Assembly: GCA_024404235.1 (NCBI GenBank)
Contig: JAKSQF010000001.1
Location: 1-45,832, forward strand
Reading direction: 5' to 3'
Source of the DNA: Clostridia bacterium
Lineage (GTDB): Bacteria; Bacillota; Clostridia; Oscillospirales; Acutalibacteraceae
DNA length: 45,832 nucleotides
Shown: positions 4,886-39,522 of the stretch, piece by piece
How the letters are laid out: the number at the start of each line of letters is the position of its first letter
Numbering within the stretch: the stretch's first letter is position 1
The notes under the pieces: generated by a model
Database searches by the model: none
What the model was told of the DNA's origin: nothing
Seen by the model: the letters and a program-made list of their open reading frames with translations, nothing else
Program-made: the position numbers and the translations under genes

Positions 4886-4907
4886 AGAAGGATCTCCCTT
4901 TTTACCG

Positions 4908-4939
4908 TCGGTCGGAATCCGATTACGGGTTCCGACCGA
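4908..4939 (-). other. Intergenic stem-loop between paralog genes (function unclear)
   Basis: tcggtcggaa / ttccgaccga forms a 10-bp stem, with inner ccg/cgg pairing possible. No U-tract follows on the minus strand; the RBS of gene 2942..4885 follows instead. Confidence 0.3.
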
Positions 4940-4980
4940 GTCGGCATATTATTGAAACAGAGATATTGATTTTTGAAAAA

Positions 4981-7008: not shown

Positions 7009-7021
7009 AAACTTTTCCTCC

Positions 7022-21393: not shown

Positions 21394-21403
21394 ATTGCAC
21401 CCG

Positions 21404-23569
21404 CTACATTCTGAACGTGATTTCGTTATAGATATTCTTGAGCATTGAACCCATCTGACCGATCAGGTTGACGAACAGCAGTCCCAAGAAGACGATGATC
21501 AGCATACCGACAACGGTGAGTATCACGGCAATTACATTCTTGCCTAACTGGTAATCGTGCGTGGAAAGAACAGAGCAGAACAGCAGGAAGCCTGTCCACA
21601 GATAACCGACGGTAAAGAAGAAGTTGACGAACATCAACTCGTTTGCCGTAACGAAATTACTGAGGATGGTTGCCGGAACAGTGAAGAACACCAGCGGCAC
21701 TAAAGCATAGCAGGTAGCTACGTAAATATCCTTCAAGCCGCCTTCGCCGTACATCAAACTGGTCAAGCACCAGTTGGCGATGCACCAAACCGCCACCACA
21801 CCGATGATAACCATCAGGTTGGCAAAAATATTGGTGTCAACATTTTGGCGGCCGGTATAGATATAACCCATTCCGACGGTACGGAACAGCAGCGAAACTG
21901 CCGCAAGTGCCAAAATGACGGTTGCCCCGCGTACGCCACCGCGTTTTGAACGTTTCAGTTCCCAATAGCCGTCAAACGGGTGGAAAATAACGTAGAAGGC
22001 AAACATAATTTCCTGACGGAGCGGGCGTTTACCCGTTACCGTAGAAGGAACGGCGCTGTTGAACTTTTTGGCGAATTTAAAGAATCTTGAAATTAAATAG
22101 CAAAGGAGAACTGCCAACACAGGCACCAGCAAAATATAATTGCCGAGCTTTTCACGGCGGTATTCGGAATAGGCCTCCGAATAATCCTCGACGTCGTTGG
22201 CAAGCTCGAAATAACCCATCGCTTCCTTATATTTGCCCTGCCGACGAAGTGCCGTGCCGATTCCGATATTGGCTAAATCGAAATTGGCGTTTTCAAGCAA
22301 AATCTTCTTATAAACGCCCACGAGCTGTTCGTACTCACGGTCGGCCGATAACTGAATGGCATTCAACACCAGAGCACCGTAGTTGGTCTTTTCAAAAACT
22401 GTAATACTGCCGGCCGCGGCATCCAATGCGTACATATTCATATCGGTATCGTATTCGATGGCGCTGAGCTGACGGAAAAGACCGAACTGATAACCCGTAC
22501 CGCCGTAGGCATACAGCAGGTTACCGTTTTCATCATAGGTAAAGATCTTACCGCGCTTTTGGTCGGCCAATGAATAAACACCGTTATACCCGACCGCCGC
22601 ATCCATAATACTGGAAGGGCCGTAGAAAATATCGGTATTCGTGGCGTTGCCGCCGGTAGCCATGGAGATTTCAACGTCACCGGCCGGCGGGAATGCACCG
22701 TTACGGATCAGCACGTCTTCTCCGGCGGAATTCAGCTTTTTGATCATTGCAAAGCGGTTTTCCGTGCTGCGGCTTTGAATGGTTTGAATAACGGCATTGA
22801 CGTCGGAGTAGGTCGAAGTAACGTACAAAAATCCTTTTTCGTCAATGGCGATATTGTTGTAGTTGGTAGGAACATAGCTTAACGTACGTTTTTTCTGTTC
22901 CTCGGTCATAAAGCGACGCCAGATGCGGTCTGCGACCGAAACGGTAACCTTTTGCGCACCGATGAAGGTGGAAAATTCGCCGTCCGGATTCAGTGCAACA
23001 ACACCGTAGGTATTACCGACCGAAACAATATAAATACGGCCCGCTTTATCAACCGAAAGCTTTGTCGGAATGTAGGAAAAATCGTGCGGCAGCAAACCGG
23101 ACACCGGTCGCTCGACTACCTGCACGCAGGTCAAATCCCGATCAAAAACGTAAATCTTCAAGCCGGTGGAGTCCGCCACGTACAGCTTGCCGTCTTCAGT
23201 GACAAAAACACCCGTCGGCTTCGTTAAGGCGTATTCTTTTCCTTCAAATTGAAATGAAGAAATGGCCTGTGCAGAGGAACGGTCCGCAGAAGTGACCACC
23301 ACTCGAGCGTTATCCGTATCGGCAATATAGATCCTGCCGTCCTTGTCCACACACAGATCCTGCGGATTTGCAAGCTTGCCGATGCCGAGGTTAGCTCCGT
23401 CAATTCGTTTTTCCGGAACGTAGGCATGCGGCGATTCAACCGACTCACCCTCATAATTATAAGAATAGGTCGAATAAGGGACATTATTATCCGCTGACAC
23501 GGAAAGCGATGCTGAAAATACCGTCAGCAAAGCCAGTACGAACATTAAAATCCGCTTAGCGTATTTCAC
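21404..23569 (-). CDS. Fusion protein: secreted 6-bladed NHL-repeat beta-propeller plus TPR-like segment plus C-terminal Yip1-type polytopic membrane domain
   Basis: 721 aa with a GTG start and AGGAAGGGA 5 nt upstream, and a signal peptide. NHL-like blades include PQDLCVDKDGRIYIADTDNARVVV, PTGVFVTEDGKLYVADSTGLKIYVFD, PTKLSVDKAGRIYIVS and three more. The TPR-like segment is ..GTALRRQGKYKEAMGYFELA... About 6 TM helices follow, with a Yip1-like entry motif (FYVIFHPFDGYWELKRS). The stop is TAG. Confidence 0.88.
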   Translation of the reverse strand: MKYAKRILMFVLALLTVFSASLSVSADNNVPYSTYSYNYEGESVESPHAYVPEKRIDGANLGIGKLANPQDLCVDKDGRIYIADTDNARVVVTSADRSSAQAISSFQFEGKEYALTKPTGVFVTEDGKLYVADSTGLKIYVFDRDLTCVQVVERPVSGLLPHDFSYIPTKLSVDKAGRIYIVSVGNTYGVVALNPDGEFSTFIGAQKVTVSVADRIWRRFMTEEQKKRTLSYVPTNYNNIAIDEKGFLYVTSTYSDVNAVIQTIQSRSTENRFAMIKKLNSAGEDVLIRNGAFPPAGDVEISMATGGNATNTDIFYGPSSIMDAAVGYNGVYSLADQKRGKIFTYDENGNLLYAYGGTGYQFGLFRQLSAIEYDTDMNMYALDAAAGSITVFEKTNYGALVLNAIQLSADREYEQLVGVYKKILLENANFDLANIGIGTALRRQGKYKEAMGYFELANDVEDYSEAYSEYRREKLGNYILLVPVLAVLLCYLISRFFKFAKKFNSAVPSTVTGKRPLRQEIMFAFYVIFHPFDGYWELKRSKRGGVRGATVILALAAVSLLFRTVGMGYIYTGRQNVDTNIFANLMVIIGVVAVWCIANWCLTSLMYGEGGLKDIYVATCYALVPLVFFTVPATILSNFVTANELMFVNFFFTVGYLWTGFLLFCSVLSTHDYQLGKNVIAVILTVVGMLIIVFLGLLFVNLIGQMGSMLKNIYNEITFRM

Positions 23570-25373: not shown

Positions 25374-28250
25374 TTATTCAGTCGGCAAACCGAATTCGGC
25401 GCGCTTGCGGGTAATTTCGCTGTTCAGCATTTCAACCTGCTTTAAGATGGCCGCATCCGGCTTTTTGCCGTTGGCATAAACCGAAGCGAAAGCAAAGTCG
25501 ATGGCACGGGCCGTGTAGTAGCCGCCCGGAATTTCCGGTGTGCCCTGCAGGTGCTGTGACTGATCCTTCAAAGCCGCATATTCGGCATCGGTCCAGGACA
25601 TTCCTTCAATGGCGCCGAGGTTTGCGGTGGCGTGCTTTGCGGCAACGCCCAAAACCGATTCGACCTCGATTGCATAACGGCTTTGAGTTTCGGTCGAGGT
25701 GACCCACTTCATAAACTCCCAAGCCTTATCCTTTTGCTTGCAGGATTTCAACATCATAATGCCCGAGGAAGCGGCCGGTGCGGTGTAGTTGATCGAGCCG
25801 TCCGCCTGCTTTGTTCCGGGAACGGGAGCCATTGCCCAAAGTCCCTTAATTTCGGAAGCAAAGATGGTCAACTGATTATACATCGTGTATTCCGTAATGC
25901 CGATAGGCATTTCACCGCTTCTGAAACGGTTGGCAAAGTCGTAATCGACCGGCAGACGGTACAGGGTAAACAGTTCGGACATCCGTTCAAAGCAGCGGAT
26001 GTTCAAATCCTGCGACATCTGCGATTTTGTAAATTTATCGTTATACAGCGAGCCGCCGTTTTGATAAAGGAACAGCTCCAAGCCGTACAGATTCATATTG
26101 GAAACGACCGACGTTTTGGCATTGATTGGATAACCGAAGTCCAGATTCTGCTGTTGCAGCTTCCAAATGACCTCATAGAATTCATCCCACGTTTTCGGCG
26201 GTTGCAGGCCGAGTTCTTCAAAGATGTCCGTACGGTAGAACATCATTAAGAAGGTCATCGTTTCGGGCAGCGCATAGGTTGCCCCGTTAAACGAGAACGG
26301 CGTCAGCGCAGCGCTGTGGAAACGGGTAGTGGTTTCCTCGAAGCCGGGCATATCTTTCAGATCAACAGCCGCGCCGCGGATGGCAAAGTCGATCGGCATA
26401 TGGGAGGTGACGTTCATGGCGACGTCCGGTCCGGTGCCTGCCAGTACCGACGGCAGCAACGCGGTCGGTGTAACCAACTGAACGTTGACCTTGATACCCG
26501 TTTGCGGGGTGAAGTACTGTTCGGTCAGCTTCTGCATGATCTGGCATTGCTCACGTCCGTTTGACATCCAAACCGTGATCACGTTTCCTTTTTTGTAGTC
26601 ATCTTCCGTGATATCACCCGCAAAGGACTGATAATCCTGGAAGAAGCTGAGGAAGAAACGCTTGATCTTAAACCAAAGGTTTTTGAAGAAGGAATCACTC
26701 GATTCGGGTGCTTTTTCATCGGCCGGGCTGATATACAGCTGATCCAAATCCAACGGTTGAACCATAATCGACTGGATCCAAGTACCCAATGAAGAGAGGT
26801 TATCTTTATAGGTCGAGAACAGCTCCGAAATGGATTCGGGGTTTTCGCACATCTTATCCAACACAATGGTCAGCTTACCGATCGAATTGGTAAAATCACC
26901 CTTGGAGTTGGTCATTTCGTTTAACGCATCAATCGTTTTATTCAGTTCCTTACTTTGCTTTGCAAAGTCTTCCAAAACTTCCGGAATCAGCTCGTCATAA
27001 CCGTAGTCACGGTAGATATCCGGTGTCGGGCCCGTGATGATCAAAATACGGCGGTAGTCGGCGTTCAAAGCAGACAGTGCATCCTGTATGCGGGCGATCA
27101 CCGGTGCCATATCGCCGAGGACGACCTCTAACTTGAGGGTATGTTTGCCTTCCTCTAAGAAGAAGCGGAACGGTTCTTCGGCACCGAGGGCCGCATTTTT
27201 CCAAGTGTCGGTATAATCGAAGCGGATCCACTGTGCTTCCTCGAACGGGCAAACATCATCAATGTAAAGCTTTCGGGAGGTAAATCCGCCGTCGTAATAA
27301 TCCTGCTTGTAGCGGGTGGAGATTTTATAATATCCGGTCTTTTTGACGTCGATATCCCAAGAGAGCCATTGACCGGTTTGACCCCATTTGTCACCGCTGA
27401 TCACATTCAGCACCGTTTTAACCGGATGCTGCGGTGAAAGCGAAGCGGAGGATTTATCCCCCGTGGGGTAAACGGTGAAGGTCGATTTTTCGGTGACCTT
27501 TTCGGCCTCGACGGTGATGGTTTCACAATCGACCGAATCACCCGGATGGGCTGCAAGGTAATCTTTATAAGTCGGGACGGTGATTTCCGGATAGAAGCGC
27601 AGGCCGATGACCTCTAACTTTTCACGGTCGGCCCGCAGGGATACGGTATGCTCCCCTTTAGTCAGATGAACCGAAAGGTTGCCGGGTACGTAGTTTTCGG
27701 CATCGTGCAACGTATAGGTCATCACACGCGGGGCCTCCAACTGCTCCGGCGTGACTTCGTCACCTTTGGCGTTGGTTTGAACAGCGTCGTCTTTATAAAC
27801 GCGGGAGAAGTTGAGGTACTGTGCCTGATCGTACGGAACTTTGCCGTCAATCAGCAAGGTACGCTCGATCATACCGCCCTTGGAAACCGTCGGGAAATAT
27901 GAAACGTCCAACTGATAAAAGCCTTCGCTTTGGGCCGTGAATTTCCAGGTTGCCGTGCTGTCCCCTTCGGTCAGCAGGCCACCGTTTTCACCCTTGGAAA
28001 CCGTTCCGGTAGTTGAGGCAGTATCAAGACCGGCAATATTGATTTCACCTTCGGCAACGGCAGGCTTTTCGATTTCCGCCCGATATTTTGCATAAGCGGA
28101 CTCCAAAACCAGCGTGCCGGGTGCCGTTTTTTTCTGATCCTTCGATGCCCTTCCGGCCGAAACAACCGACTGCAAAATAAAGATCAGCACCAAACATATT
28201 GCCGTTATTATACAAATTAATTTTTTCTTTTGTTCAAAAAAACGTGCCAC
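25374..28250 (-). CDS. Very large extracellular solute-binding protein: signal anchor, two CBM6/35-like beta-sandwich regions, a helical region and a C-terminal family-1 sugar SBP domain
   Basis: The ORF track start, ATG 28313, sits inside the -10 box of the promoter, so I prefer GTG 28250..28248, with GGGGTGG 4 nt upstream. The protein begins VARFFEQKKKLICIITAICLVLIFILQSVVSA. The SBP fold starts about 26591 (GNVITVWMSNGREQCQIMQKLTEQYF...). The exact start remains uncertain. Confidence 0.85.
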   Translation of the reverse strand: MARFFEQKKKLICIITAICLVLIFILQSVVSAGRASKDQKKTAPGTLVLESAYAKYRAEIEKPAVAEGEINIAGLDTASTTGTVSKGENGGLLTEGDSTATWKFTAQSEGFYQLDVSYFPTVSKGGMIERTLLIDGKVPYDQAQYLNFSRVYKDDAVQTNAKGDEVTPEQLEAPRVMTYTLHDAENYVPGNLSVHLTKGEHTVSLRADREKLEVIGLRFYPEITVPTYKDYLAAHPGDSVDCETITVEAEKVTEKSTFTVYPTGDKSSASLSPQHPVKTVLNVISGDKWGQTGQWLSWDIDVKKTGYYKISTRYKQDYYDGGFTSRKLYIDDVCPFEEAQWIRFDYTDTWKNAALGAEEPFRFFLEEGKHTLKLEVVLGDMAPVIARIQDALSALNADYRRILIITGPTPDIYRDYGYDELIPEVLEDFAKQSKELNKTIDALNEMTNSKGDFTNSIGKLTIVLDKMCENPESISELFSTYKDNLSSLGTWIQSIMVQPLDLDQLYISPADEKAPESSDSFFKNLWFKIKRFFLSFFQDYQSFAGDITEDDYKKGNVITVWMSNGREQCQIMQKLTEQYFTPQTGIKVNVQLVTPTALLPSVLAGTGPDVAMNVTSHMPIDFAIRGAAVDLKDMPGFEETTTRFHSAALTPFSFNGATYALPETMTFLMMFYRTDIFEELGLQPPKTWDEFYEVIWKLQQQNLDFGYPINAKTSVVSNMNLYGLELFLYQNGGSLYNDKFTKSQMSQDLNIRCFERMSELFTLYRLPVDYDFANRFRSGEMPIGITEYTMYNQLTIFASEIKGLWAMAPVPGTKQADGSINYTAPAASSGIMMLKSCKQKDKAWEFMKWVTSTETQSRYAIEVESVLGVAAKHATANLGAIEGMSWTDAEYAALKDQSQHLQGTPEIPGGYYTARAIDFAFASVYANGKKPDAAILKQVEMLNSEITRKRAEFGLPTE

Positions 28251-28280
28251 AAAACCACCCCTGCGACAATTTGTTGTATT

Positions 28281-28290
28281 TTTTGTATTA
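28281..28290 (+). promoter_or_regulatory. Candidate operator box TTTTGTATTA in the 5' leader of operon A
   Basis: It matches 9 of 10 positions of the ATTTGTATTA box. It lies between the predicted TSS (~28305) and the start codon (28250) of the minus-strand operon. Confidence 0.5.
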
Positions 28291-28311
28291 AATGATAATT
28301 CTACCAATCGC

Positions 28312-28340
28312 ATTATATCATATATTTTTCAACAAAGCAA
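28312..28340 (-). promoter_or_regulatory. Sigma-A-type promoter of operon A: TTGCTT - 17 nt - TGaTATAAT (extended -10)
   Basis: The minus strand reads TTGCTT (28340..28335), a 17-nt spacer ending in TGA, then TATAAT (28317..28312). Confidence 0.65.
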
Positions 28341-29583: not shown

Positions 29584-29603
29584 TTCAAAGCATATTAAGA
29601 CAA

Positions 29604-29640
29604 CAATCCCCGAACCGAAATCGGTTCGGGGATTGTTTTA
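29604..29640. terminator. Bidirectional intrinsic terminator between convergent genes
   Basis: caatccccgaaccga-aa-tcggttcggggattg forms a 15-bp perfect stem (29604-29635). TTTTA follows on the + strand. It lies between the stop of the regulator (29583) and the stop of the giant gene (29648). Confidence 0.85.
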
Positions 29641-29647
29641 CTTTGCA

Positions 29648-32600
29648 TTATTTTGTCGCTTCATCCTTTTTCTTTTTCTTGCGGAAGAAGAACGGAATGA
29701 TGAAGAATACCACGGCACCGGCGCCTAAGCCGATGATGATCGTGCGGAGCTGCTCGATCTTATCGGCAAGCTTCTGCGGATAGGGTGTTAATTCCGCACC
29801 CTTCAAGCCGCCGTTGACCTTATTGCCAACGTTTTTGCCGGCCGCTTCACTACGCATGAAGACGATCGGCTCGACCGGGTTATTGTTAGCGGTGGAACCG
29901 CCTTCGGCCGTTAAGCGCAGGTTGTCGATGTAAACCATACAATCCGGCGTTCCCTCATCGCATCCGAGGAAATAGATACGGAAGAAGTTAAAGGCTTTCT
30001 TGTTTAGACCGCCGTTGACCGAGCTTTGCGGTTTATCCAAATCGAATTCAAAATGGTACCACTTATTGCCCTTGTTACCCTCGGTCAAATCCTGAGCGAG
30101 TTCCGGACAAGCCAGCAGGATCAGCGAACGGGTATAACGGTCGGATTCCTTATCGCAGGTACCGGAGGAGGTCAATTCAACCATAAATCCGGTAGAGGTC
30201 TGCAAGCAGGTAATATCCGAAAGGAACATATCAAACTGCAGGGTGTGATACTTGGAAATATCCAGCGGTTCCGACGGAATGAAGGCAAGCTGCTTCAATA
30301 CACCGCCGGGTGCCAGTACCGATACAGAGCCCGTGCCTTCAACCTTGTTTTTGGTATCCACACGGATTTCCTGACGACAGCTCCAACCGAAGGAACTGTC
30401 GCAATCGCTGAGGATCATATAGCGATCATTTTTGATAATGCCGGGGGCCTTTTCACCCTTAACAAAACGCATATTATCAAAGGCGATCGTATAATCCTTT
30501 GTACCCTTTTCAACATCGACCGTATAGAAGCGGAAGTAATTGAACGCCGACTTATTCAAGCCGCCGCGTACTTCTGCGTGCGGACGGTCAAGATCCAGCT
30601 TGAAATGGTACCAGCCGCCGCCCTTGCCGGCATCAATATCAGCCGCAAATTTGGGGCAGGCTTCAAGCATGGAGGATTTTGTAAAGCGGCTGGATTCATA
30701 GTCGCACTTACCGGCAGAGGTCAGTTCGAACATCGTGCCGCCGGCCTTATTAAACCAATCAAGATTGGAGAAATAAACGTCAAATTCAAGATAACGGTAA
30801 TCCGAAACGTTTATCGAAGCGGACGGAACGTAGGAAATCTGCTTAAGCAAGCCGCCCGGAACCGTAACAGAAACAGAAGAATTGCCCTGTGTCTTCAGTT
30901 TGCGGTTCAGTTGCGGATCGCCGACCGAGGATTTCCAGTAAGCCGAAGCATCGCCGTCGGTCATATACATCGAATTGGAATCGATCTTCTTACCGTAGGA
31001 CGGATCGGCCGAAAGCGGACCGTCGCCCGAGTTACCCTTTGTAAAGGTCAGATTATCGAAATTAAGGACGTAATCTTTTGTGCCCGACTGAACGTCGACC
31101 GTGTAGAAGCGGAAGTAGTTGAACTTGGATTTATTCAAGCCGCCGCGTACCGAGGTGTGCGGATTATCCAAATCTAGCTTGAAGTGATACCAGCCGCCGC
31201 CTTTACCGGCATAAACGTCCGAAGCGAACTGCGCACTAGCTTCCAAAATAGAAGATTTGGTATAACGGGCAGACTGATCGTCGCACTTGCCGGCAGAGGT
31301 CAGTTCGAACATCATACTGCCGGTTTTGTCAAACCAATCCAAATTGGAGAAATAGACGTCAAATTCCATATAACGGTAGGCCGAAATATCCAGCGGGACG
31401 CCCGGAACATAGGAAATTTGTTTCAACAAGCCGCCCGGAACCGTTACCGTTACCGAGGAGTTGCCTTCAGTCTTGTTTGCGGTGTCCAACTGCGGGTTAC
31501 CGACAGAAGAATTCCAGTAAGCCAGCGTATCACCGTTGGTCATATACATCGAAGAACCGTTGATCTTCTGACCGAAGGACGGATCGGCCGATTGCGGTTT
31601 GTCGCTGCCGCCTGCATCCTTGGTGAACTTCATATTATCAAACTTGATATCGCAATCAGCAGTACCGGCAGGCGAACCGATGGCGAAGAAACGGAAGTAA
31701 TTGAAACGTTTCATATCCAAGCCGCCGCGCACCTGAGTTTGTGCAGAGCCGAGTCTCAGTTTCAAATGATACCAACCCGGTTCTGCCGTACCCGAAACCG
31801 CATTGGTGTAGAATTCGGTTTCGTTATCACGCAGATAGCCCTTCATATAGCGGTCGGATTCATTATCCGCAGCGCCCGAAGAGGTCAATTCGAACATCAT
31901 ACTGGTACAGCTGTTGAACCATTCCATGTTCGAGAAGTAAACGTCGAATTCCAAATAATCGTACTGGGAAATATCCAATGCCGTGCCGGGCAGTACAACA
32001 AACTGACGCAAGTTACCGTTAACGGCGGTCACCGCAGCAGAGCCCTTGCCCTGCGTGAGGTTTTCTTTATCGGTGGTGACCGTTGCACCCGAAACGGTGA
32101 TGCCGGTCAGGGTGTCGCAATCCGACAGCCACATATTGCCCTTGCTGTCGATACTACCGGCCGAGGTATCTGCCGCGGCGTCGGTGATTTCATCGGTAGC
32201 CGAGCCGGGAGTCGGCAAAACGTCGGTACGAAGCGTAATATCGTCAAACAGAACCGTTGCATCGGTGCCGGTGACGGCAAAACGCAATTCGGTCATATTC
32301 TTCAAAACGCCGGTGCTGTCCGAAAGGACTTTATCCTCACTGTTGGTCAAGCGGGCAAAGTTGAAGGTGTAGGCCGTGTACTGATCCTTACCGACGGTAT
32401 AGGACGTTGCACGCTTAGTGCCGGTAACGATGGTGGCGTTATAGATTTCATCGGCCGAAACGATCTGAACAGACAACTGTGCAGTGGTTTTCGCCTTAGC
32501 ATAAACCGTAATGCCGCTGTAATTCTGATACTGCTTAACCGTGCCGCCGTAATTTAACACGGGGGTCATATAGCCGTTTGCACCGCTGTAGGTCATCTTG

Positions 32601-35600
32601 ACCGCAGTGCCGCCTTCGTATGCATCGCTTGTATCCAGCGAAAGTGCCGCTGTTGCCGAGGTGCTGAAGGCCGGCTGATAACCGGCGTCGGTCGAAGTCA
32701 GCGCATTCCAAGTAGACAAATCGTTACAATCGGCCCAATCCATCGACAGATAGTAAACCGACTTGACTTCGTCACTGCGATAAGGTACCGCCGGAATGCC
32801 ATTGGAGTTGCAAAGATTGGCCTGTAACGGGAATGAAGACCATGCATAGGTCACGGCGACCGGTTTGGTGATGTTGGGGTTATAGACCTCCACCGTATCC
32901 TTCGATACGATTTTGGCAGTTGCCTTTGTAAACACGCGGGAGGAATCGGCGACGGCGAAGCCGTAAACCGTACTGCCGCTGACCGTGTTAAGGCCGGTAC
33001 CCACGTTCCTGACTTTTACCGTGATCTTATTACCGCTGACCGTGTAAGAAGTAGCCACGGGGGCGGTTGCGGCGTCTGCTGTGCCCTTGCCGTAAACACC
33101 GGAAAGGGCGGCATCGGCGAAACGGAGGCCGACCGCATACTTGCTGTTCGGGTGGATCGGATCGGGGTTATTGAGCGGCGGATCATAGAAATTTAGCGAA
33201 AGATCATAGATCGGCAACTGTAAAACCTTGGCCTTTGCATTCTTGGTGACGTTGGAAAGCATTACCGAGAAGTCGGCCAAAATCGTCATATAATCCGAAC
33301 GAACGCTGCTGTAATTGTAGGGAGCCAAGTGTGCGCAGAGAACCGGCATATTACCCGAGAAGCCGAAATCGGCACTATACGAGTTGATCAAGGCCGTCAA
33401 GGCATGCTCGTAGAAGGTGTTATAGCCGTTATCGTCGGCATACTTGATATTGCTTTCGCCTTGATACCACAGCAAACCGCTGATGCCAATACCGGCCAAC
33501 GGAGCGACCTTGGTATTATAAAGGGTCGTAAGATAGGTCCAGTTAGAAGAAGTTTTGCCTAAGGATGCAACGTCCTTATAAAGGCCGCGCTTTTCAAGGG
33601 TGGATTTAATAACGCTGTCGTTTTCAATCGCTTCACGGGGCAACCACGATTCGATGACCGAAGCACCCTTTGCCGCATTGATAAAGCCGACCGGAACATC
33701 CAATTTTTCCTGCAGCTGCAGGGACATATAGTAACCGATAGCCGAGGTATAGATGACGTTCATGGCGTTGGAGCCGTCTACCCACTTGGCTTCCGGAACA
33801 TCGGAAGTCGGGGTTGCCGACAGCGCCGAGGTTACACCGCCCGGTACCAACGGTTCATCGAACACGCGTACGTACTGATTCAGCGGAACGAGAGAATAAT
33901 CATAGTTCTTGATGGTTTGGGAAACAAAGTATTCCATATTGGATTGGCCGGCCGCCAGCCAGACCTCACCGAACAGGATATCCTCGATTTTCTGTTTGGA
34001 AGCGCCGTCTACCAGCAATTCCAAAGAGTAGGCTTCATAGCCGCCCTGCTGTGCCGGCAGTTTGACAGTAAACGCACCGTTTTTGTCGGCTGTGGTAGTA
34101 GCCGTTGCAACTTCGGTATTGCCCTTGGAAAGCACAGCCGTTACCACGGCGCCGTCCTTTTGGGCATTACCCGAAATGTTGATCGGCTTATTGCGGGCAA
34201 TGATCATACCGTCGGCATAGTAGGAGCTGACGATACGTTCTTCACGCTTATTGGTCAGCGCAATGTCCGTAATTTTAACCTCATAAGTATCCGTGCTGCC
34301 GGCAATCGGGCGATTGTAAAAACGCAGATAATTGATCTTGGAAAGGTCAAAATCCTGCTTGGCGTTATTGCCGTTTGCCAAACACAAACGAAGTTCATTC
34401 CAGCCGGACTTTAAGCCGAGCTTCGGTACAGACCAGTTCAGTTCCTGAACATCACTTTGTCCGGAGGAGGTCAGTTCCAGCTGACCGTCGCCGGAGAAAT
34501 TCAGCACGTTGTTGGTGCCGTCGGTATTCTTGACATAGACACGCATGGTCAGATACAGATCGGATTTCTGATACTTTGAAAGATTGTACTCAAAGTTTTT
34601 CGCAACGAACTGGAAGCTGCCGTTATTGGTAGCCGAATAGGTGTCGTTGATTTTCCAAACGCCCTCTTCATCGGGTTCTTCTTCCGAAGGACCGTCGGCC
34701 GACTCATCATAACGGGCAATCACGTTATCGAAACGGAAGTTGCCGTTCGGCACGCTTTGGACGAGCGCAGAATTGATATTGGTGCTGATGGAGAAGGATT
34801 GGAAATGTGCCAAATCCAGCGTACCGCCGGTTTTCTGATTCAGCGGAACGGCTACGTGATACCAGCCGTTGCCAAGCGGCGTAACATCCCATTTTTCCAA
34901 AGCATAGGTAGCCGTACCGGCGGCACCCGCAACCTCGAACCGAATGTTGTCGCCGTAGGCCGCAACGATATCATCCCAATAGGCATAGGTCGAATCGCCG
35001 ACCTTAATGCTCATCATATCAAATTCAATCACATTATAAGCGGAAAGATCGGCCGAAACGCTGTAGGTCAGCTTACGCAGAGCGCCGAAACCGACATAAA
35101 CCTGTACCGCACCGGCAGTTAAACCGTTGGGGCTGACGGTAACGTTATCAATGTTGCCGCTGTAGCTCCAACCGGCAAGCGATTCACATTCCGTGATAAC
35201 GGCGTCATTGGTCGGCTCGGGGCCGGGGCCGGGATCGGGTTCGGTCGAACCGCCGGCTGTACCGACAGCGTAAAGGTTATCAATACGGATGTGACCGTTA
35301 CGAACGGACGAGCTGACGCCACCGTCCTTGGTAGTAAAGGTGAAGTAGGACATTTTGCTCGGATCAAATTTACCCGAGGTGCCCGTATAATTATTCAGCG
35401 TGACCGAGAAATGATACCAAAGGTTATTGGTTTCATTTTGGGTGACCGTCATTTTAGAAAGGCGGTACAGGTTATAGTCAGAAGCGGAGGAACCGATTTT
35501 GACGTAAACCTCATCCCCATAGGTAGCTTTGATATCGTCCCACATACCGGGTTGACCGCCGGAATGCATCATAACATCCCATTCTACCCTTTCGCAGGAG

Positions 35601-35866
35601 GAAATATCCACGGCGGTAGGAGCCGTAAAGCTGCAATCACGGAAAGCACCGCAGTTAATATCGGCAGCAACTGCTTTGCCGGTAAGACCGCCGTTATGGA
35701 CTACCAACGCATTACCGGAAGTCTTCGTCCAACCGGTCAGCGTTTCGCAATCGCTGATGAGCACGCGGTTTTCTTCGGCGGCAACTCCGAACAGCGGAAT
35801 GCACACAAAAGCACCGGAAACGATTATTGCCAGTGCCAAGGCCACGGCAAGAATTTTCTTCTTCAT
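29648..35866 (-). CDS. Giant (2072 aa) cell-surface protein: signal peptide, several binding-like beta-sandwich modules, an SGNH/SASA-type (sialate-O-acetylesterase-like) carbohydrate esterase domain, four tandem ~190-aa modules and a C-terminal TM anchor
   Basis: The signal peptide is MKKKILAVALALAIIVSGAFVCIPLFGVAA. The esterase motifs are FGEVWLAAGQSNMEY (GQSN at 33938-33949) and NPDPIHPNSKYAVGLRFA (about 33141-33176). The C terminus is LRTIIIGLGAGAVVFFIIPFFFRKKKKKDEATK. Its ATG overlaps the TGA of the upstream gene. Confidence 0.92.
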   Translation of the reverse strand: MKKKILAVALALAIIVSGAFVCIPLFGVAAEENRVLISDCETLTGWTKTSGNALVVHNGGLTGKAVAADINCGAFRDCSFTAPTAVDISSCERVEWDVMMHSGGQPGMWDDIKATYGDEVYVKIGSSASDYNLYRLSKMTVTQNETNNLWYHFSVTLNNYTGTSGKFDPSKMSYFTFTTKDGGVSSSVRNGHIRIDNLYAVGTAGGSTEPDPGPGPEPTNDAVITECESLAGWSYSGNIDNVTVSPNGLTAGAVQVYVGFGALRKLTYSVSADLSAYNVIEFDMMSIKVGDSTYAYWDDIVAAYGDNIRFEVAGAAGTATYALEKWDVTPLGNGWYHVAVPLNQKTGGTLDLAHFQSFSISTNINSALVQSVPNGNFRFDNVIARYDESADGPSEEEPDEEGVWKINDTYSATNNGSFQFVAKNFEYNLSKYQKSDLYLTMRVYVKNTDGTNNVLNFSGDGQLELTSSGQSDVQELNWSVPKLGLKSGWNELRLCLANGNNAKQDFDLSKINYLRFYNRPIAGSTDTYEVKITDIALTNKREERIVSSYYADGMIIARNKPINISGNAQKDGAVVTAVLSKGNTEVATATTTADKNGAFTVKLPAQQGGYEAYSLELLVDGASKQKIEDILFGEVWLAAGQSNMEYFVSQTIKNYDYSLVPLNQYVRVFDEPLVPGGVTSALSATPTSDVPEAKWVDGSNAMNVIYTSAIGYYMSLQLQEKLDVPVGFINAAKGASVIESWLPREAIENDSVIKSTLEKRGLYKDVASLGKTSSNWTYLTTLYNTKVAPLAGIGISGLLWYQGESNIKYADDNGYNTFYEHALTALINSYSADFGFSGNMPVLCAHLAPYNYSSVRSDYMTILADFSVMLSNVTKNAKAKVLQLPIYDLSLNFYDPPLNNPDPIHPNSKYAVGLRFADAALSGVYGKGTADAATAPVATSYTVSGNKITVKVRNVGTGLNTVSGSTVYGFAVADSSRVFTKATAKIVSKDTVEVYNPNITKPVAVTYAWSSFPLQANLCNSNGIPAVPYRSDEVKSVYYLSMDWADCNDLSTWNALTSTDAGYQPAFSTSATAALSLDTSDAYEGGTAVKMTYSGANGYMTPVLNYGGTVKQYQNYSGITVYAKAKTTAQLSVQIVSADEIYNATIVTGTKRATSYTVGKDQYTAYTFNFARLTNSEDKVLSDSTGVLKNMTELRFAVTGTDATVLFDDITLRTDVLPTPGSATDEITDAAADTSAGSIDSKGNMWLSDCDTLTGITVSGATVTTDKENLTQGKGSAAVTAVNGNLRQFVVLPGTALDISQYDYLEFDVYFSNMEWFNSCTSMMFELTSSGAADNESDRYMKGYLRDNETEFYTNAVSGTAEPGWYHLKLRLGSAQTQVRGGLDMKRFNYFRFFAIGSPAGTADCDIKFDNMKFTKDAGGSDKPQSADPSFGQKINGSSMYMTNGDTLAYWNSSVGNPQLDTANKTEGNSSVTVTVPGGLLKQISYVPGVPLDISAYRYMEFDVYFSNLDWFDKTGSMMFELTSAGKCDDQSARYTKSSILEASAQFASDVYAGKGGGWYHFKLDLDNPHTSVRGGLNKSKFNYFRFYTVDVQSGTKDYVLNFDNLTFTKGNSGDGPLSADPSYGKKIDSNSMYMTDGDASAYWKSSVGDPQLNRKLKTQGNSSVSVTVPGGLLKQISYVPSASINVSDYRYLEFDVYFSNLDWFNKAGGTMFELTSAGKCDYESSRFTKSSMLEACPKFAADIDAGKGGGWYHFKLDLDRPHAEVRGGLNKSAFNYFRFYTVDVEKGTKDYTIAFDNMRFVKGEKAPGIIKNDRYMILSDCDSSFGWSCRQEIRVDTKNKVEGTGSVSVLAPGGVLKQLAFIPSEPLDISKYHTLQFDMFLSDITCLQTSTGFMVELTSSGTCDKESDRYTRSLILLACPELAQDLTEGNKGNKWYHFEFDLDKPQSSVNGGLNKKAFNFFRIYFLGCDEGTPDCMVYIDNLRLTAEGGSTANNNPVEPIVFMRSEAAGKNVGNKVNGGLKGAELTPYPQKLADKIEQLRTIIIGLGAGAVVFFIIPFFFRKKKKKDEATK
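29912..32140 (-). repeat. Four tandem coding repeats (~555-590 bp each) encoding an uncharacterised ~190-aa module
   Basis: The units start at NMWLSDCDTLTG (~32135), SMYMTNGDTLAYW (31549), SMYMTDGDASAYW (30970) and RYMILSDCDSSFGW (~30420). The middle two are 579 nt apart and roughly 80% identical at protein level. Shared blocks are LDIS.Y.Y(L/M)EFDVYFSN, MFELTS(S/A)G, WYHFKLDLD, GGLNK..FNYFRFY and FDN..F. Confidence 0.85.
33090..33985 (-). other. SASA/DUF303-like SGNH esterase domain inside the giant protein
   Basis: A GQSNME block, a LWYQGESN block and a D-x-I-H-P..K..VG.R block occur in the order typical of 9-O-acetylesterase-like carbohydrate esterases. Confidence 0.75.
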
Positions 35867-36702
35867 TTCGCACCCTCCGATTTATTTCTTTTGATTCTGA
35901 TAATCAGTACAACCACAAAACGAATGATCAACAGCAGCAGCACGACGGCAACCGCAATGGCAACGGTATATTCGGTTTGCAGTTTTTTGTTCAGTTCTTT
36001 GTCGACACCCTTGTTGGGATCGCTGTGCTTCGGCACGTAGATCTCCGACTCGGCCGCTTGATTACCCGTTTCCTCTTCCTCGGCGATCGGCGTATAGTTT
36101 GACGGGTTATTGGTGAAACGGAAATTGTCAAATCTTACAGTATAATCCGGTGTGGACGTGATCGGATCGACCGAATAGAAGCGGAAATAGTTGAAGTTGG
36201 CTTTATCCAATCCGCCGTTTGCTACGCCCTGAGGATTGTCGATATCCAAGACGAAGTGGAACCAGTTTTGCTGATCCTCGATTGCGCCCGTTTCAAACAG
36301 TTCGCGCAACGTTTTTTTCATATAACGGTTGGATTCTTTATCGCTGGTACCGGAAGAAGTCAATTCCATCATGACCGATCCGCAATCGTTGAACCAAGTG
36401 ATATTCGTAAAATAAATATCAAATTCAAGATAACGGAAATCCGTAATATCGATCGACTTTTCCGGCTTATAGCAGATTTGATTCAGTTTACCGTTCATGG
36501 CCGTAGCACCGATCGAGCCGGCACCCTCGGTCTTGTTATTGGCATCGGATTCGAGCGCGTCCATACCCTGCGTGCTGGCCGACCAGTCTTTCGTACTGTC
36601 GCAGTTGCTCATCACAAGGTCACCGGCACCTGCGGCGGATACGGGGAAATTGAGTAAAACGAAAGCCAAAACAAGGCAAATCAAAGCAGTTAAACGTTTC
36701 AT
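35863..36702 (-). CDS. Small anchored surface protein: signal peptide, one copy of the giant protein's repeat module, a linker and a C-terminal TM anchor
   Basis: 279 aa starting MKRLTALICLVLAFVLLNFPVSA. The module blocks are LVMSNCDSTKDW...IDITDFRYLEFDIYFTN...MMELTSSGTSDKESNRY...WFHFVLDIDNP...GGLDKANFNYFRFYS...FDNFRF. The anchor is TVAIAVAVVLLLLIIRFVVVLIIRIKRNK. GGGGGAGGAAAGGAA RBS lies upstream. Confidence 0.9.
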   Translation of the reverse strand: MKRLTALICLVLAFVLLNFPVSAAGAGDLVMSNCDSTKDWSASTQGMDALESDANNKTEGAGSIGATAMNGKLNQICYKPEKSIDITDFRYLEFDIYFTNITWFNDCGSVMMELTSSGTSDKESNRYMKKTLRELFETGAIEDQQNWFHFVLDIDNPQGVANGGLDKANFNYFRFYSVDPITSTPDYTVRFDNFRFTNNPSNYTPIAEEEETGNQAAESEIYVPKHSDPNKGVDKELNKKLQTEYTVAIAVAVVLLLLIIRFVVVLIIRIKRNKSEGAK

Positions 36703-36717: not shown

Positions 36718-39522
36718 TTACGACCACCAAGTGGCCTTTTCCGTAATGGTTGCACCCTTATTGAGAATGGTGGTGCCGAATTTTCCGTTGGGTGACAACA
36801 CTGCCAACGACTGACGGGCAATGTCACCGATCAGGTGAACCTTAGCGCCGCTTTGTGCCACGACTTGATAGGTCTTGGGCGGCATCATAACCGAGCAATA
36901 GTAGGTTTCGCCGCCGTATGCACCAAGCAATACGTCGGTGCTGTCAAGGTTATAATAAAGCAACTGTGCAATGACCAAACGACCGCCGTAAACACGGATG
37001 GCGTCGGGTCGGGGCTGTGCCCACATCATGGAGTTGAACAGTGCGACCGTTCCGGTAACGGTGGGCTTCATCGTGATGTGATGCTGCTCGCCCGAGCCGT
37101 TCATGGAAACCATTTCGGCGTTGATAAACTCGACCGTGTCGGCTTCTTCAACGATCAATGCGTTACAGCAACCGTCCGAGCCGTGACCGATAATGGTACC
37201 GTTCAATCCGCCCTTGCCCTGCGAGGTCAAAACCAACAGGTTAAGACCGGCATAAGCAAAGTTACCGAGCATATGTTCCGATTTATTATCACCGAAGATG
37301 AAAACGTCAAGCGTGGTATTGACCACGTTATTCAATTCTTCATTCGGCTCATTGGGTTTGACCGAAATGTCGGCACGCTTCCAGTAGTGCGGGTTAAACT
37401 GGCAGTTTTCCACCCAACCGTTTTTGTCGTTGTTGCCGACGAAAACGCCCTTCTTAAGCGGAGCGCCGCTACAATAGTTGATGTAATGTCCTGCAGAGGG
37501 GTTGGTACCGAAATCCAACGCTTGATAGGAGTTGATAAAAACGCAGTTGATTGCCCAGCAGTTTTCACCCAACGAGCGAACCGTCCACGGATACGGAATA
37601 AAGTTGATATAGCTTTGTTCCGGATACAGGAAGCAGACGCCGTTGACACCGGCACCTTCTGCCAGATTGATCAGTGCTTCGCCGTCGGCTTTTCCCTTCC
37701 CCAAACGGGTGGTAATGGTAGAGCCCTTCGTGGCAGTGTGGGTCGGTACGTTGAAGATACCGCGCAGTTCAACACCGGTAGGTACCGTGACCGATTCGGA
37801 AAGTCCGAATTCGCCCTGCGGGATATAGACGACACCACCGGTTTTACCGGCTTCTTCCAAAGCCTTTTTAATGGCGGCCGTGCTGTCGCTTCCGTTCTTG
37901 GCACCGTAATCTACGATGTTATAGACCTTAGAAGCGGAAGCCGTCGGAATACTGCGGCGATAAACGTGCAGTCGACCGCTGGTGACCGGCAAATTCAACG
38001 GAGTATGATCGATGGAAATATAGCCGGCACGTTCTTTATCATAGTTGATATCAGCCGCACCGCCGAAGGTAGAACCTACGACCGAGCAACCGCCACAGCT
38101 CTTTGCAATCTGAATATGCTTTTTCGCACCGGTAAAGTTACATTGCTGTACGCTGATACTGCCGCGATGCATATTAAGAGCGTAACCGTTCTCATCCCAA
38201 TCCGAGAAGGTGCTGTTGACCATGGTCATATGACCGTTGCCGAGGCAGGCAAACGGCTCTTGGATATTACCGCTGATACGCAGATTCTGGAAATCACAGT
38301 TTTCCGAGAAGCCGGCATTCATCAGTACACCGTACTGACAGGTCTTGTCGCCGGTGATCTCAACGTCGGTAAAGCAGTCACCGATTGCGTTGGTGGCCTG
38401 AATGTCAATACCGATGGTGCAATCCTTGATTTTCAGATTGCAGTACTGTGCGTTGGCTGCACGATTTTCACGGTTGTAAATCTGACGAATGGCGCAGTAC
38501 AAACCGGTTGCTTCAAAATCATAGGTATATTCCCAGTCGGAGCGCTGCATCCAAAGGCCGACCGCGTACTGACGCATATAGTCCTTTAAGATCTGCTGAT
38601 CTTCCTTGCTGAAAGCCGAGTAAGCGTTTTCGGCAAAATACTGGGACGAAAGGCGAATGCCCTCCAACCGACCGATATCGGTAACATCATCCAGCATAAT
38701 GGCATTATTGAAGGCTGAAATGTAGACGTTCTTCAAGTAGTGCAATTCGCTCCAGCTCAGGTTTCCCTGATAACCGTTCCAACAGCCGGCAACCGTCACG
38801 TTCATTACCGTGAAGCTGTCGCCGCCCATTTCCTGAATGGCGGCCGGATACTTCTGCACGTCCAATGCCGTCTGGTCGGGATAAAGGATCGTCAAATTGC
38901 GCATACCGGAGCCGGGACGCATTTTCATAAAGGCCGAGCCGCTTTCACGACCGCGGTTTTTACTGCGTACCAAAATGACCGAGCCGCAGCTACCGGCCGG
39001 AGCCGTTGTGGGGGCTACCCATTCACCGCGCAGGGTAACGCCTGCCGGAATTTCAATATTGTTTTCGCAAAGGTACTTACCCTCCGGCAGGTAAACCACA
39101 CCGCCGCCGAGCTTAGCAGCCTCTTTCAAAGCACGCTGGAGCTGACCGCTGGTATCCTTTGAACCGTCGTTGCAAACGTCGAAATCCTCTACGGCGTTAT
39201 AAATCGCAACGCAAACGCCGGTGCCATCATCGTACTTCACGTCTACCGCATAGGGCTCGCCCGGAGTACGGTCGACCTTTTCCGGCTTTTCGGGGACGAT
39301 CACGGGGGTGTCGTCATCAATAAAGTTCAATCCGGAAAGAAAATCGTTGTCTTCAATTCCCTGCGGAATTTCTACCTTGTTGACGGCTTCGGTCGGGTAC
39401 GGGAAAGAATAGGAAAAATTCCCGAATTTTTGTGCGGTATTCTTTTCTTGCTTACCGCAACCGCTGAATAACAGCGCCATCATGGACACGCAAAGCAAAA
39501 TTGCAATTATTTTTTTACTCAT
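36718..39522 (-). CDS. Lipoprotein GH55-like double beta-helix enzyme (paralog of 7022..10678)
   Basis: 934 aa with a lipobox (ALLFSG-C-GK). The two N-cap motifs are GQLQRALKEAAKLGGGVVYLPEGKYLC..VTLRGEW and STAAIKKALEEAGKTGGVVYIPQGEFGL..VELRGIF. It is collinear with the 1218-aa paralog through to the C-terminal W-W end. Confidence 0.9.
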   Translation of the reverse strand: MSKKIIAILLCVSMMALLFSGCGKQEKNTAQKFGNFSYSFPYPTEAVNKVEIPQGIEDNDFLSGLNFIDDDTPVIVPEKPEKVDRTPGEPYAVDVKYDDGTGVCVAIYNAVEDFDVCNDGSKDTSGQLQRALKEAAKLGGGVVYLPEGKYLCENNIEIPAGVTLRGEWVAPTTAPAGSCGSVILVRSKNRGRESGSAFMKMRPGSGMRNLTILYPDQTALDVQKYPAAIQEMGGDSFTVMNVTVAGCWNGYQGNLSWSELHYLKNVYISAFNNAIMLDDVTDIGRLEGIRLSSQYFAENAYSAFSKEDQQILKDYMRQYAVGLWMQRSDWEYTYDFEATGLYCAIRQIYNRENRAANAQYCNLKIKDCTIGIDIQATNAIGDCFTDVEITGDKTCQYGVLMNAGFSENCDFQNLRISGNIQEPFACLGNGHMTMVNSTFSDWDENGYALNMHRGSISVQQCNFTGAKKHIQIAKSCGGCSVVGSTFGGAADINYDKERAGYISIDHTPLNLPVTSGRLHVYRRSIPTASASKVYNIVDYGAKNGSDSTAAIKKALEEAGKTGGVVYIPQGEFGLSESVTVPTGVELRGIFNVPTHTATKGSTITTRLGKGKADGEALINLAEGAGVNGVCFLYPEQSYINFIPYPWTVRSLGENCWAINCVFINSYQALDFGTNPSAGHYINYCSGAPLKKGVFVGNNDKNGWVENCQFNPHYWKRADISVKPNEPNEELNNVVNTTLDVFIFGDNKSEHMLGNFAYAGLNLLVLTSQGKGGLNGTIIGHGSDGCCNALIVEEADTVEFINAEMVSMNGSGEQHHITMKPTVTGTVALFNSMMWAQPRPDAIRVYGGRLVIAQLLYYNLDSTDVLLGAYGGETYYCSVMMPPKTYQVVAQSGAKVHLIGDIARQSLAVLSPNGKFGTTILNKGATITEKATWWS

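Follow-up and report, generated by a model that had tools for sequence, protein, structure and literature searches.

A candidate glycan-binding module repeated in six exported proteins of a glycan-utilization locus of a Clostridia bacterium

The stretch of DNA analysed in this study (45,832 nucleotides, contig JAKSQF010000001.1 of assembly GCA_024404235.1, Clostridia bacterium; hereafter the window) is a glycan-utilization locus of the Clostridia type, with nearly every gene on the minus strand, which we take to originate from uncultured rumen or gut Clostridia. Within the window we distinguished a protein module of ~160-180 amino acids (aa), present in 19 sure copies in six proteins; five of these copies are closely related and are encoded by two overlapping genes, one for a protein of 279 aa (the small protein) and the other for a protein of 2072 aa (the giant). 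We propose, with a probability of roughly 0.65, that the module is a non-catalytic beta-jelly-roll glycan-binding domain, forming a divergent, unnamed branch of the type-B carbohydrate-binding module (CBM) superfamily that includes CBM30, CBM28 and CBM11. From the repeats, their predicted fold and remote homology, their domain partners, the conserved synteny and the genomic context of related proteins in polysaccharide utilization loci (PULs), we infer sugar binding, a possible class of ligand and a role in polymer capture.

The gene of the small protein ends in the start codon of the giant gene: its TGA overlaps the ATG of the latter in the sequence ATGA (35863-35866), and a GGAGG motif is located 8 nucleotides upstream. 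Because of this stop/start overlap and the appropriately placed GGAGG, the two genes are considered translationally coupled. The catalytic core of the giant is recognized by the Pfam SASA model (E-value 1.8e-9), and its matches in the PDB include 9ega (E 9e-47), 7kmm (E 1e-42) and 9h4u, annotated as "carbohydrate esterase FI8" (E 1.9e-41). A signal-peptide-like N-terminus was found in all six module proteins. Four of them, i.e., the small protein and three paralogs (of 647 aa, of 697 aa and one truncated by the left edge of the window), are composed of modules only, accompanied by an anchor, a dockerin or, in the 697-aa paralog, an unassigned tail of ~110 aa. The 697-aa protein and the sixth protein, an enzyme of 1218 aa, have a signal peptide and are devoid of a membrane anchor, dockerin or sortase signal.

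A single-sequence phmmer search with the module of the small protein (S1; aa 25-205) as the query retrieved four tandem copies in the giant (aa 1243-1417, 1439-1613, 1633-1803 and 1817-1987; domain E-values from 6e-36 to 7e-45), which together span aa 1243-1988. Pairwise aa sequence identity of the five copies (S1 and G4-G7) is 38-45%, with a value of 73% for the G5/G6 pair, and S1 is closest to the C-terminal copies of the giant (39-44%). The same query also reached more divergent copies, namely the first modules of the 647-aa (E 2.8e-9) and 697-aa (E 1.8e-7) paralogs and the three N-terminal modules of the giant (E from 3e-4 to 1e-3). The copies were confirmed in two ways: (i) with an iterated profile of the window modules and (ii) with an independent hidden Markov model (HMM) built from 265 modules of other genomes. 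With each of these they reach E-values of 1e-24 to 1e-57. In this manner 14 divergent copies were added to the initial five, and the 19 sure modules are distributed among the giant (7), the small protein (1), the left paralog (4), the 697-aa (3) and 647-aa (3) paralogs and the 1218-aa enzyme (1). The remaining proteins of the window gave no module match (next best E 0.26, external HMM). An earlier note on this DNA, prepared from the sequence alone, had described five module copies in two coupled genes together with related, more divergent modules elsewhere in the locus; both parts of this description proved correct, and the motifs that it had listed (SDCD..GW, LDISxYxYLEFD, ELTSSG, WYHF.LDLD, FNYFRFY and FDN) are all in register in the alignment. 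Its count of seven secreted proteins has to be reduced to six, and its unit of ~190 aa shortened to the length given above.

The modules fall into two types (Table 1). Type A comprises S1 and G4-G7, as well as the N-terminally shortened G3 and L4; these modules contain the ELTSSG motif and resemble the family-wide consensus, and the full-length copies (S1 and G4-G7) have an extra helix. Type B comprises G1, G2, L1-L3, A1-A3, B1-B3 and H1, shares 13-28% identity with type A and is devoid of the Glu of the ELT motif.

Table 1. Position of the module copies and associated features in the window (aa numbering refers to the protein named; "external HMM" is the model of 265 modules from other genomes).
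Feature	Position	Strand	Residues	Remarks
Small protein gene	35863-36702	-	279 aa	signal peptide, one module, acidic linker, C-terminal membrane anchor and short basic tail
S1	36088-36630	-	small protein aa 25-205	type A (ELTSSG subtype)
Small protein transmembrane anchor	35899-35970	-	aa 245-268	putative, read from sequence; followed by RIKRNKSEGAK
Giant gene	29648-35866	-	2072 aa	membrane-anchored multi-module O-acetylesterase
G1	35264-35770	-	giant aa 33-201	type B; E 1.4e-42 (external HMM)
G2	34709-35212	-	giant aa 219-386	type B; E 3.2e-37 (external HMM)
G3	34250-34684	-	giant aa 395-539	ELTSSGQSD, N-terminal DC(D/E)..GW strand absent; E 2.7e-28, HMM positions 38-163
Giant catalytic core	32771-34228	-	giant aa 547-1032	SASA/sialate-O-acetylesterase-like carbohydrate esterase
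Possible eighth giant module	32225-32740	-	giant aa 1043-1214	very divergent, doubtful and not established as a module; independent E-value 0.24 (broad HMM); starts ..WADCNDLSTW, ends ..LFDDITL
G4	31616-32140	-	giant aa 1243-1417	type A; phmmer E 1.5e-42
G5	31028-31552	-	giant aa 1439-1613	type A; phmmer E 1.9e-44
G6	30455-30976	-	giant aa 1631-1804	type A; 73% identical to G5
G7	29903-30418	-	giant aa 1817-1988	type A; phmmer E 5.7e-36
Giant transmembrane anchor	29684-29740	-	giant aa 2043-2061	followed by RKKKKKDEATK
934-aa beta-helix lipoprotein gene	36718-39522		934 aa	double beta-helix protein
1218-aa enzyme gene	7022-10678	-	1218 aa	double beta-helix (GH55-like) enzyme
H1	10115-10585	-	aa 32-188	N-terminus of 1218-aa enzyme; E 3.8e-24
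697-aa paralog gene	4981-7074	-	697 aa	secreted
A1	6367-6906	-		697-aa paralog
A2	5863-6345	-		697-aa paralog; iterated profile and external HMM
A3	5323-5817	-		697-aa paralog; iterated profile and external HMM
647-aa paralog gene	2942-4885	-	647 aa	dockerin-bearing
B1	4244-4783	-		647-aa paralog
B2	3737-4225	-		647-aa paralog; iterated profile and external HMM
B3	3194-3676	-		647-aa paralog; iterated profile and external HMM
Type I dockerin	3008-3172	-		C-terminus of 647-aa paralog; Pfam Dockerin_1 E 7.9e-11
Left paralog gene	1-2048	-		runs off left window edge
L1	1428-1970	-		left paralog
L2	870-1364	-		left paralog; iterated profile and external HMM
L3	342-836	-		left paralog; iterated profile and external HMM
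L4	3-296	-		left paralog; ELTSSGQSD type like G3, cut by window edge; E 4.4e-13

In searches with the whole proteins and with 18 isolated full modules, the module regions reached no Pfam-A or NCBIfam model: for the isolated modules Pfam gave no match at E < 0.02, and the best sub-threshold E-values (0.02-0.3) refer to unrelated families. Orthologs of the small protein likewise lack a Pfam domain over the module, the sole name recorded for them being "hypothetical protein", and no account of the module or of the locus was found in literature searches. Structure prediction with AlphaFold (AF2) yielded a beta-sandwich of ~12 strands for both types, with a pLDDT of 85.7 and pTM of 0.84 for the type-A module S1, and 93.5 and 0.89, respectively, for the type-B module B1. 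In Foldseek searches of the PDB with the two models, almost all of the best matches were CBMs (E from 1e-6 to 1e-4, TM-score 0.5-0.62, identity 10-18%), i.e., CBM11 (1v0a, 6r31), CBM8, CBM28, CBM27, CBM4, CBM29, CBM22, the CBM30/44 pair 2c26 and the laminarin-binding X584 (8qx6). The list also includes the CBM-like N-domain of GH50 agarases and one non-CBM structure, the turret of Haloferax tailed virus 1. Both the predicted fold of the module and its genomic company match what is known of carbohydrate-binding modules.

Among known families, CBM30 is the closest in sequence and CBM11 in structure. The CBM30 reference is the N-terminal module of Clostridium thermocellum CelJ/Cel9D-Cel44A (PDB 1WMX/2C24), and the family binds beta-1,4-glucans and xyloglucan. 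The two best PDB matches of a profile of 18 modules were the CBM30 chains of C. thermocellum CelJ (1wmx and 2c24; E 0.011); a profile of 34 sequences matched the same chains at E 0.004 (profile positions 18-140), with CBM28 (3acf, E 0.0087) next. Direct alignment of the profiles to the CBM30 sequence with hhalign gave 86.8% with the 18 modules, and 93.8% (E 1.7e-7) with the 265 modules; in control runs, 40 shuffles of the CBM30 sequence reached a maximum of 6.5% and the reversed sequence 0.2%. The D-(L/I)-S-x-Y...YLEFD and W-x-H-(V/F)...L...G-x-D-x-S motifs are in register with CBM30 in these alignments. Bridging sequences were also found: the Pfam CBM30 model scores above its gathering cut-off of 27 on three relatives (P0048, 66.8 bits; P0063, 36.8; P0143, 30.0), in the same stretches that are matched by the module HMM. 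In P0048, the domain at aa 1608-1765 is matched by the module HMM at 2e-17 and by the CBM30 model over positions 21-169 of 170. These comparisons point to a detectable common ancestry with CelJ CBM30, real but remote, and place the modules in a separate unnamed branch of the CBM30 superfamily rather than among CBM30 members as now delimited.

Further features of the modules both resemble and depart from the known families. Like the window modules, CBM30 is a beta-sandwich (~170 aa) from Clostridia, attached to polysaccharide-degrading enzymes, and the fold likeness extends to 2c26 (Foldseek E 2.3e-4, TM-score 0.52). In contrast, the DC(D/E)..GW N-terminal strand, the (F/I)xxDN C-terminal strand and ELTSSG are specific to the family of the window module, the type-A modules have an extra helical insert, and the enzymes of the window are an acetylesterase and beta-helix hydrolases rather than cellulases. 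CBM11 (1V0A, 6R31) is the top or near-top structural match of both types, with E-values from 1.6e-6 to 2.5e-5, TM-scores of 0.54-0.62 and the same jelly-roll topology and size, and it is the best Foldseek match of the B1 model; this likeness is at the level of the fold only, as identity is 10-14% with a root-mean-square deviation of 5-6 Å. CBM11 chains were absent from the module-profile searches of the PDB (E <= 10 for the 18-module profile; E <= 1 for the 34-sequence profile). Two further families, CBM28 (3ACF, Clostridium josui Cel5A; the profile match mentioned above covers nearly its full length) and X584 (8QX6; profile E 0.1-0.13), are borderline matches with no family-level similarity, both being detected by Foldseek at E 1e-4 to 6e-4 with TM-scores of ~0.5. 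CBM11 of C. thermocellum Lic26A-Cel5E binds beta-1,4 and beta-1,3-1,4 glucans, CBM28 binds non-crystalline cellulose and X584 binds laminarin; by analogy, the ligands of the latter two do no more than suggest a beta-glucan ligand for the window modules.

The earlier note had called the module uncharacterised, with the pattern of a carbohydrate-binding module, and both statements agree with the annotation searches, the predicted fold and the genomic company. The module, which the earlier note could not place in a known CBM family, is made a remote relative of CBM30 by profile-profile comparison and the bridging sequences. A match to an established CBM or Pfam family, named there as the result that would speak against the proposal, exists at the superfamily level only, and the window modules themselves remain below every family threshold.

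The pattern of conservation is compatible with a binding surface. The small-protein orthologs have a common layout; when 29 of them (43-61% identity) were aligned, 44 positions of the module proved invariant, in contrast to a drifting linker and anchor. A good number of these positions hold polar or aromatic side chains that take turns with hydrophobic ones along predicted strands (E93, D95 and Y97; E113 and T115; W147 and H149; R174 and Y176, in the numbering of the small protein), and such an alternation, as read from the sequences, is what one expects of a sheet with a binding face. Throughout the family, WxH keeps its Trp (99%), DN its Asp (98%), DC(D/E) its Cys-Asp and DxS its Asp. A separate observation concerns cysteines. 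The Cys of DC(D/E) in type-A modules is accompanied by a second one, in N(D/S)C(G/T), in S1, G4 and 29/29 small-protein orthologs (C34 and C107), both are missing together from G5 and G6, and most type-B modules retain the first Cys only. This co-occurrence suggests a disulfide or a shared metal site in type-A modules.

The module had originally been regarded as locus-specific, which no longer holds because it is found in 820 representative proteins, next to varied partner domains and in two phyla. These proteins were retrieved with the module profile from 1.84 billion representative proteins at E <= 1e-3; tightening the threshold to E <= 1e-10 leaves 358 of them, and to E <= 1e-30 leaves 82. 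This is a small family of great diversity, in which 265 modules form 89 clusters at 40% identity. A typical relative has a signal peptide, from 1 to 17-18 tandem modules and, at the C-terminus, either a membrane anchor with a basic tail or a dockerin. Among 32 relatives with room for other domains, the partners comprised SASA esterases (5), GDSL esterases (4 and 3 with two GDSL models), CE2, beta-helix hydrolases (5), dockerins (5), GxGYxYP (2), metallophosphatases (2), GH5 (1), GH39 (1) and a cohesin (1).

Orthologs of the small protein were found only in metagenome-assembled genomes (MAGs) of uncultured herbivore-gut bacteria, assigned to Oscillospiraceae, Ruminococcaceae RUG11203, Clostridia of sheep omasum, a rabbit MAG and a Bacillota MAG. 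Five of the MAGs, from different species (L001-L004 and L006), share the arrangement FAD-oxidoreductase, GH38, beta-helix lipoprotein, small protein, giant, regulator and binding protein, and their giants have 5-8 modules. Two further loci differ in this region: in the Oscillospiraceae MAG from rabbit gut (L005) the giant is absent and the small protein is a two-module protein of 494 aa (8089-9573), and in the Bacillota MAG (L007) two open reading frames (ORFs) of 664 and 1016 aa occupy the place of the giant (4064-9196), which may reflect a split gene or an assembly artefact.

Several distant relatives carry lipoprotein signals of the Bacteroidota type, and the genomic surroundings of three of them (P0115, P0104 and P0180) were inspected. 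The P0115 and P0104 lipoproteins are encoded directly downstream of SusC/SusD/DUF3823, i.e., in the position of a surface glycan-binding protein (SGBP), with GH43, GH92, GH95 and GDSL genes in the neighbourhood of P0104. The P0180 gene is located after a DUF3823 gene and before a GxGYxYP gene, with a SusC/SusD pair further downstream. DUF3823 genes are found in the PULs of all three Bacteroidota loci (L008, L009 and L010). The second of these (L009, 2681-18009) has the order SusC, SusD, DUF3823, an unannotated protein of ~445 aa, the module protein, two GH43 and GH92, with GH95 and GDSL genes upstream, and the theme of alpha-mannosidase plus esterase recurs across the phyla.

Taking these data together, the modules would decorate every exported protein of the locus that must meet the polymer: (i) the anchored O-acetylesterase, with three N-terminal and four C-terminal copies, (ii) the double beta-helix hydrolase, (iii) three enzyme-less proteins of 3-4 modules, one of them with a dockerin, and (iv) the anchored protein with a single module. 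By displaying modules in multivalent form and of at least two subtypes (type A and type B), the cell would capture a polysaccharide at its surface and hold it beside the esterase, the beta-helix hydrolases and the binding proteins of the two ABC (ATP-binding cassette) importers; the released oligosaccharides would then be imported, and the GH38 alpha-mannosidases and the GH42-like enzyme, whose N-termini have no signal-peptide-like sequence, would complete their breakdown. Since the small protein has nothing else functional, the module itself must be its working part, and translational coupling would ensure that it is made in a fixed proportion to the giant. For the ligand we offer no more than a best guess, namely a beta-glucan or else a mannose-containing, O-acetylated glycan from fungi, yeasts or microbes, because the nearest CBMs bind beta-glucans and the locus has alpha-mannosidases and an O-acetylesterase alongside its beta-helix hydrolases.

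In this scheme the small protein would be the Gram-positive, membrane-anchored counterpart of a Bacteroidota SGBP. Such proteins (in SusE/SusF position, e.g., SGBP-B of the Bacteroides ovatus xyloglucan PUL, PF18329) are enzyme-less, consist of tandem beta-sandwich binding domains and are encoded inside glycan-utilization loci, and the window likewise encodes non-catalytic surface proteins built of beta-sandwich modules within a locus of this kind. Moreover, PF18329 matches a module of the relative P0048 (whole-protein E 1.9e-10). On the other hand, the window modules fall short of PF18329 (best E 0.1), the host is a Gram-positive-type member of Clostridia using ABC importers rather than SusC/SusD, and the anchor of the small protein is a C-terminal transmembrane helix instead of a lipid. 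A comparable locus logic is known from the xanthan locus of Ruminococcaceae UCG13, which comprises two GH38 alpha-mannosidases, carbohydrate esterases and a secreted enzyme with three tandem CBMs that are indispensable for its activity (bioRxiv 10.1101/2021.06.02.446819). This is an analogy of locus logic only: domain scans of the window proteins detected no PL8, GH88, GH94 or GH5, and the window was rejected as a xanthan locus.

Several results weigh against a glycan-binding function or against the CBM assignment on which it leans. Neither the giant, nor the small protein, nor any of the 18 isolated modules matches CBM30 (PF21582) even at E <= 1, and no window module reaches a curated CBM model of Pfam. 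The profile of the five-copy subfamily, built from the small-protein orthologs, gave a non-significant result against CBM30 (1.7%), and because this narrow profile does not detect CBM30, the link is remote and holds at the superfamily level only. The structural matches are also at fold level only (TM-score <= 0.62, identity <= 18%), and the residues conserved throughout the family may be structural rather than ligand-binding. Finally, the four C-terminal copies of the giant sit exactly where a stalk between a catalytic domain and its anchor would be expected.

The last point leads to the explanation that the tandem beta-sandwiches are spacers without a ligand of their own, which project the esterase and other domains from the membrane through the wall. 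The four copies between the esterase core and the C-terminal anchor fit this well, as do relatives with up to 17-18 tandem copies, many of them anchored by a C-terminal helix, and the range of 5-8 copies among orthologous giants, since a variable number is common in stalk repeats. Nevertheless, we consider a purely structural role unlikely: the small protein is a single module on a flexible linker with nothing to display, three copies are located at the distal N-terminus of the giant, and one heads the anchorless, secreted beta-helix enzyme. In addition, conservation among the orthologs is concentrated on alternating polar and aromatic strand residues and not on the core alone, the nearest folds are CBMs instead of Ig or Big stalk domains, and the Bacteroidota relatives are encoded in the SGBP position.

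The modules might alternatively serve protein-protein assembly, being cohesin-like or self-associating, so that the coupled small protein nucleates or anchors a complex at the cell surface in which the giant and the module-only paralogs take part. The coupling of the two genes and the closeness of S1 to the C-terminal copies of the giant are in line with this idea; the organism uses dockerins, a cohesin co-occurs with the module in one relative, and cohesins are also beta-jelly rolls. However, no module matches Pfam Cohesin (PF00963) and no cohesin is present among the top 50 Foldseek matches of either model, and on these grounds a cohesin identity was rejected. The module is also found in lipoproteins of Bacteroidota PULs, which have no cohesin-dockerin system, and the two-module small protein of L005 exists without a giant, making assembly a very unlikely function.

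A sugar-binding fold would serve equally well for attachment to the wall or capsular polysaccharide of the bacterium itself, with the modules retaining secreted proteins instead of binding a nutrient glycan. Something must keep the 697-aa and 1218-aa proteins near the cell, as they have neither anchor nor dockerin nor sortase signal. For the giant and the small protein, both membrane-anchored, and for the 647-aa paralog with its dockerin, such binding would yet be redundant; the partner domains are polysaccharide esterases and hydrolases, and the Bacteroidota relatives are lipoproteins of nutrient-acquisition PULs, and retention of this kind seems to us very improbable. A small catalytic jelly roll, i.e., a hydrolase or lyase of GH16- or lectin-like type in which the conserved Glu and Asp of LEFD and ELT carry out catalysis, is hardly credible and its GH16-like form was rejected on the motif: although E93, D95 and E113 are invariant on adjacent predicted strands of the small-protein orthologs and GH16 enzymes share the jelly-roll fold, their signature ExDxxE is absent (the strand reads (Y/L)LEFD(I/V)YF, in S1 EFDIYF, with no second Glu), no glycoside hydrolase catalytic domain appears among the best structural matches, the ELT Glu is missing from type-B copies, and up to 18 tandem copies per protein are unlike a catalytic domain.

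We therefore retain non-catalytic glycan binding as the preferred interpretation. A bolder version of it is that (i) the module founds a new CBM family by the CAZy sequence criterion, (ii) with a specificity outside the current families (e.g., an O-acetylated mannose-containing glycan or beta-1,3-glucan of fungal or microbial walls), and (iii) the esterase-coupled, anchored protein with one module is a Gram-positive SGBP equivalent, which uncultured rumen Clostridia and Bacteroidota PULs have in common by descent. This version is put forward tentatively, as one that may well turn out otherwise.

A name and boundaries for the module fill a domain that is now blank in annotation pipelines, and to which hundreds of large "hypothetical" surface proteins of uncultured rumen and gut Clostridia and of some Bacteroidota PULs owe most of their mass. 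If binding is true, a new CBM family would be added, the substrate would be identified for a conserved, unassigned locus (two GH38, two double beta-helix hydrolases, a SASA-type esterase, DUF5696 and two ABC importers), and the small protein would clearly exemplify how a membrane-anchored protein of a Gram-positive bacterium can take the role of an SGBP. No concept is changed by this, as beta-sandwich CBMs on esterases and hydrolases are the rule in such loci; the interest of the module lies chiefly in its being a candidate new CBM family and a handle on a conserved utilization locus of uncultured rumen Clostridia.

Apart from the module proteins, the window contains genes encoding two GH38 alpha-mannosidases, a GH42-like protein, a DUF5696 protein, an FAD oxidoreductase, an NHL/Yip1 membrane protein, a GntR/LacI-type regulator, and two ABC importers with very large binding proteins; two dockerin-bearing proteins were distinguished. 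No SusC/SusD was found among the window proteins, the importers being of the ABC type. The small and giant genes are located at the end of a run of co-oriented, closely spaced genes, which extends from a promoter-like site upstream of a GH38 gene (~42570) to a strong hairpin at 29602-29637. This hairpin (16-bp, GC-rich, with flanking T runs on both strands) lies between the convergent ends of the giant gene (29648) and the regulator gene (29583), and is likely to act as a bidirectional terminator.

Two large proteins of the window, the 934-aa beta-helix lipoprotein and the 1218-aa enzyme, each contain two Pect-lyase_RHGA_epim (beta-helix) stretches; in the 1218-aa enzyme this Pfam domain accounts for the part outside H1. 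As a single-sequence query of the PDB, the 934-aa lipoprotein gave no match. The best PDB matches of the beta-helix family profile were GH55 beta-1,3-glucanases (5m5z, E 5.5e-10 with three stretches; 3eqn; 8jhh). Because the profile reaches GH55 solely through a beta-helix cap motif, present twice in each of the beta-helix proteins, "GH55-like" is a statement on the double-helix architecture and not a family assignment. The C-termini of the two proteins end in ...GWWI and ...TWWS, respectively, and those of relatives from other genomes in HGWWI, RRGWWV and HSWWV, both Trp residues of this WW motif being invariant in an alignment of nine beta-helix sequences. The mechanically assigned TTG start (7074) of the adjacent 697-aa ORF overlaps the end of the 1218-aa gene; the ATG at 7008, with which a signal peptide opens (MKNKLAISRM...), is the likely true start.

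At the left end of the window, an ORF of 541 aa on the plus strand (51-1676) was rejected as a gene, being an antisense shadow of the left paralog with no Pfam match. The neighbouring minus-strand region (2045-2893) encodes a cytoplasmic esterase of the alpha/beta-hydrolase type, with a GFSAGG nucleophile elbow and no signal peptide, which is broken by one in-frame TAG (2519-2521; ...GGA CAA TAG GTG TCA...) into parts of 124 and 157 aa in the same frame. This gene could be a pseudogene, an assembly error or subject to read-through. One of the solute-binding proteins (979 aa; 25374-28313, minus strand) has ~590 unassigned N-terminal residues before its SBP_bac_1 domain. A literature search for DUF5696 found no mention of it; together with the 979-aa binding protein and the NHL-repeat/Yip1 membrane protein, the DUF5696 protein forms a conserved block (18778-23569 and 25374-28313, minus strand), which is also present in the L005 locus from rabbit gut.

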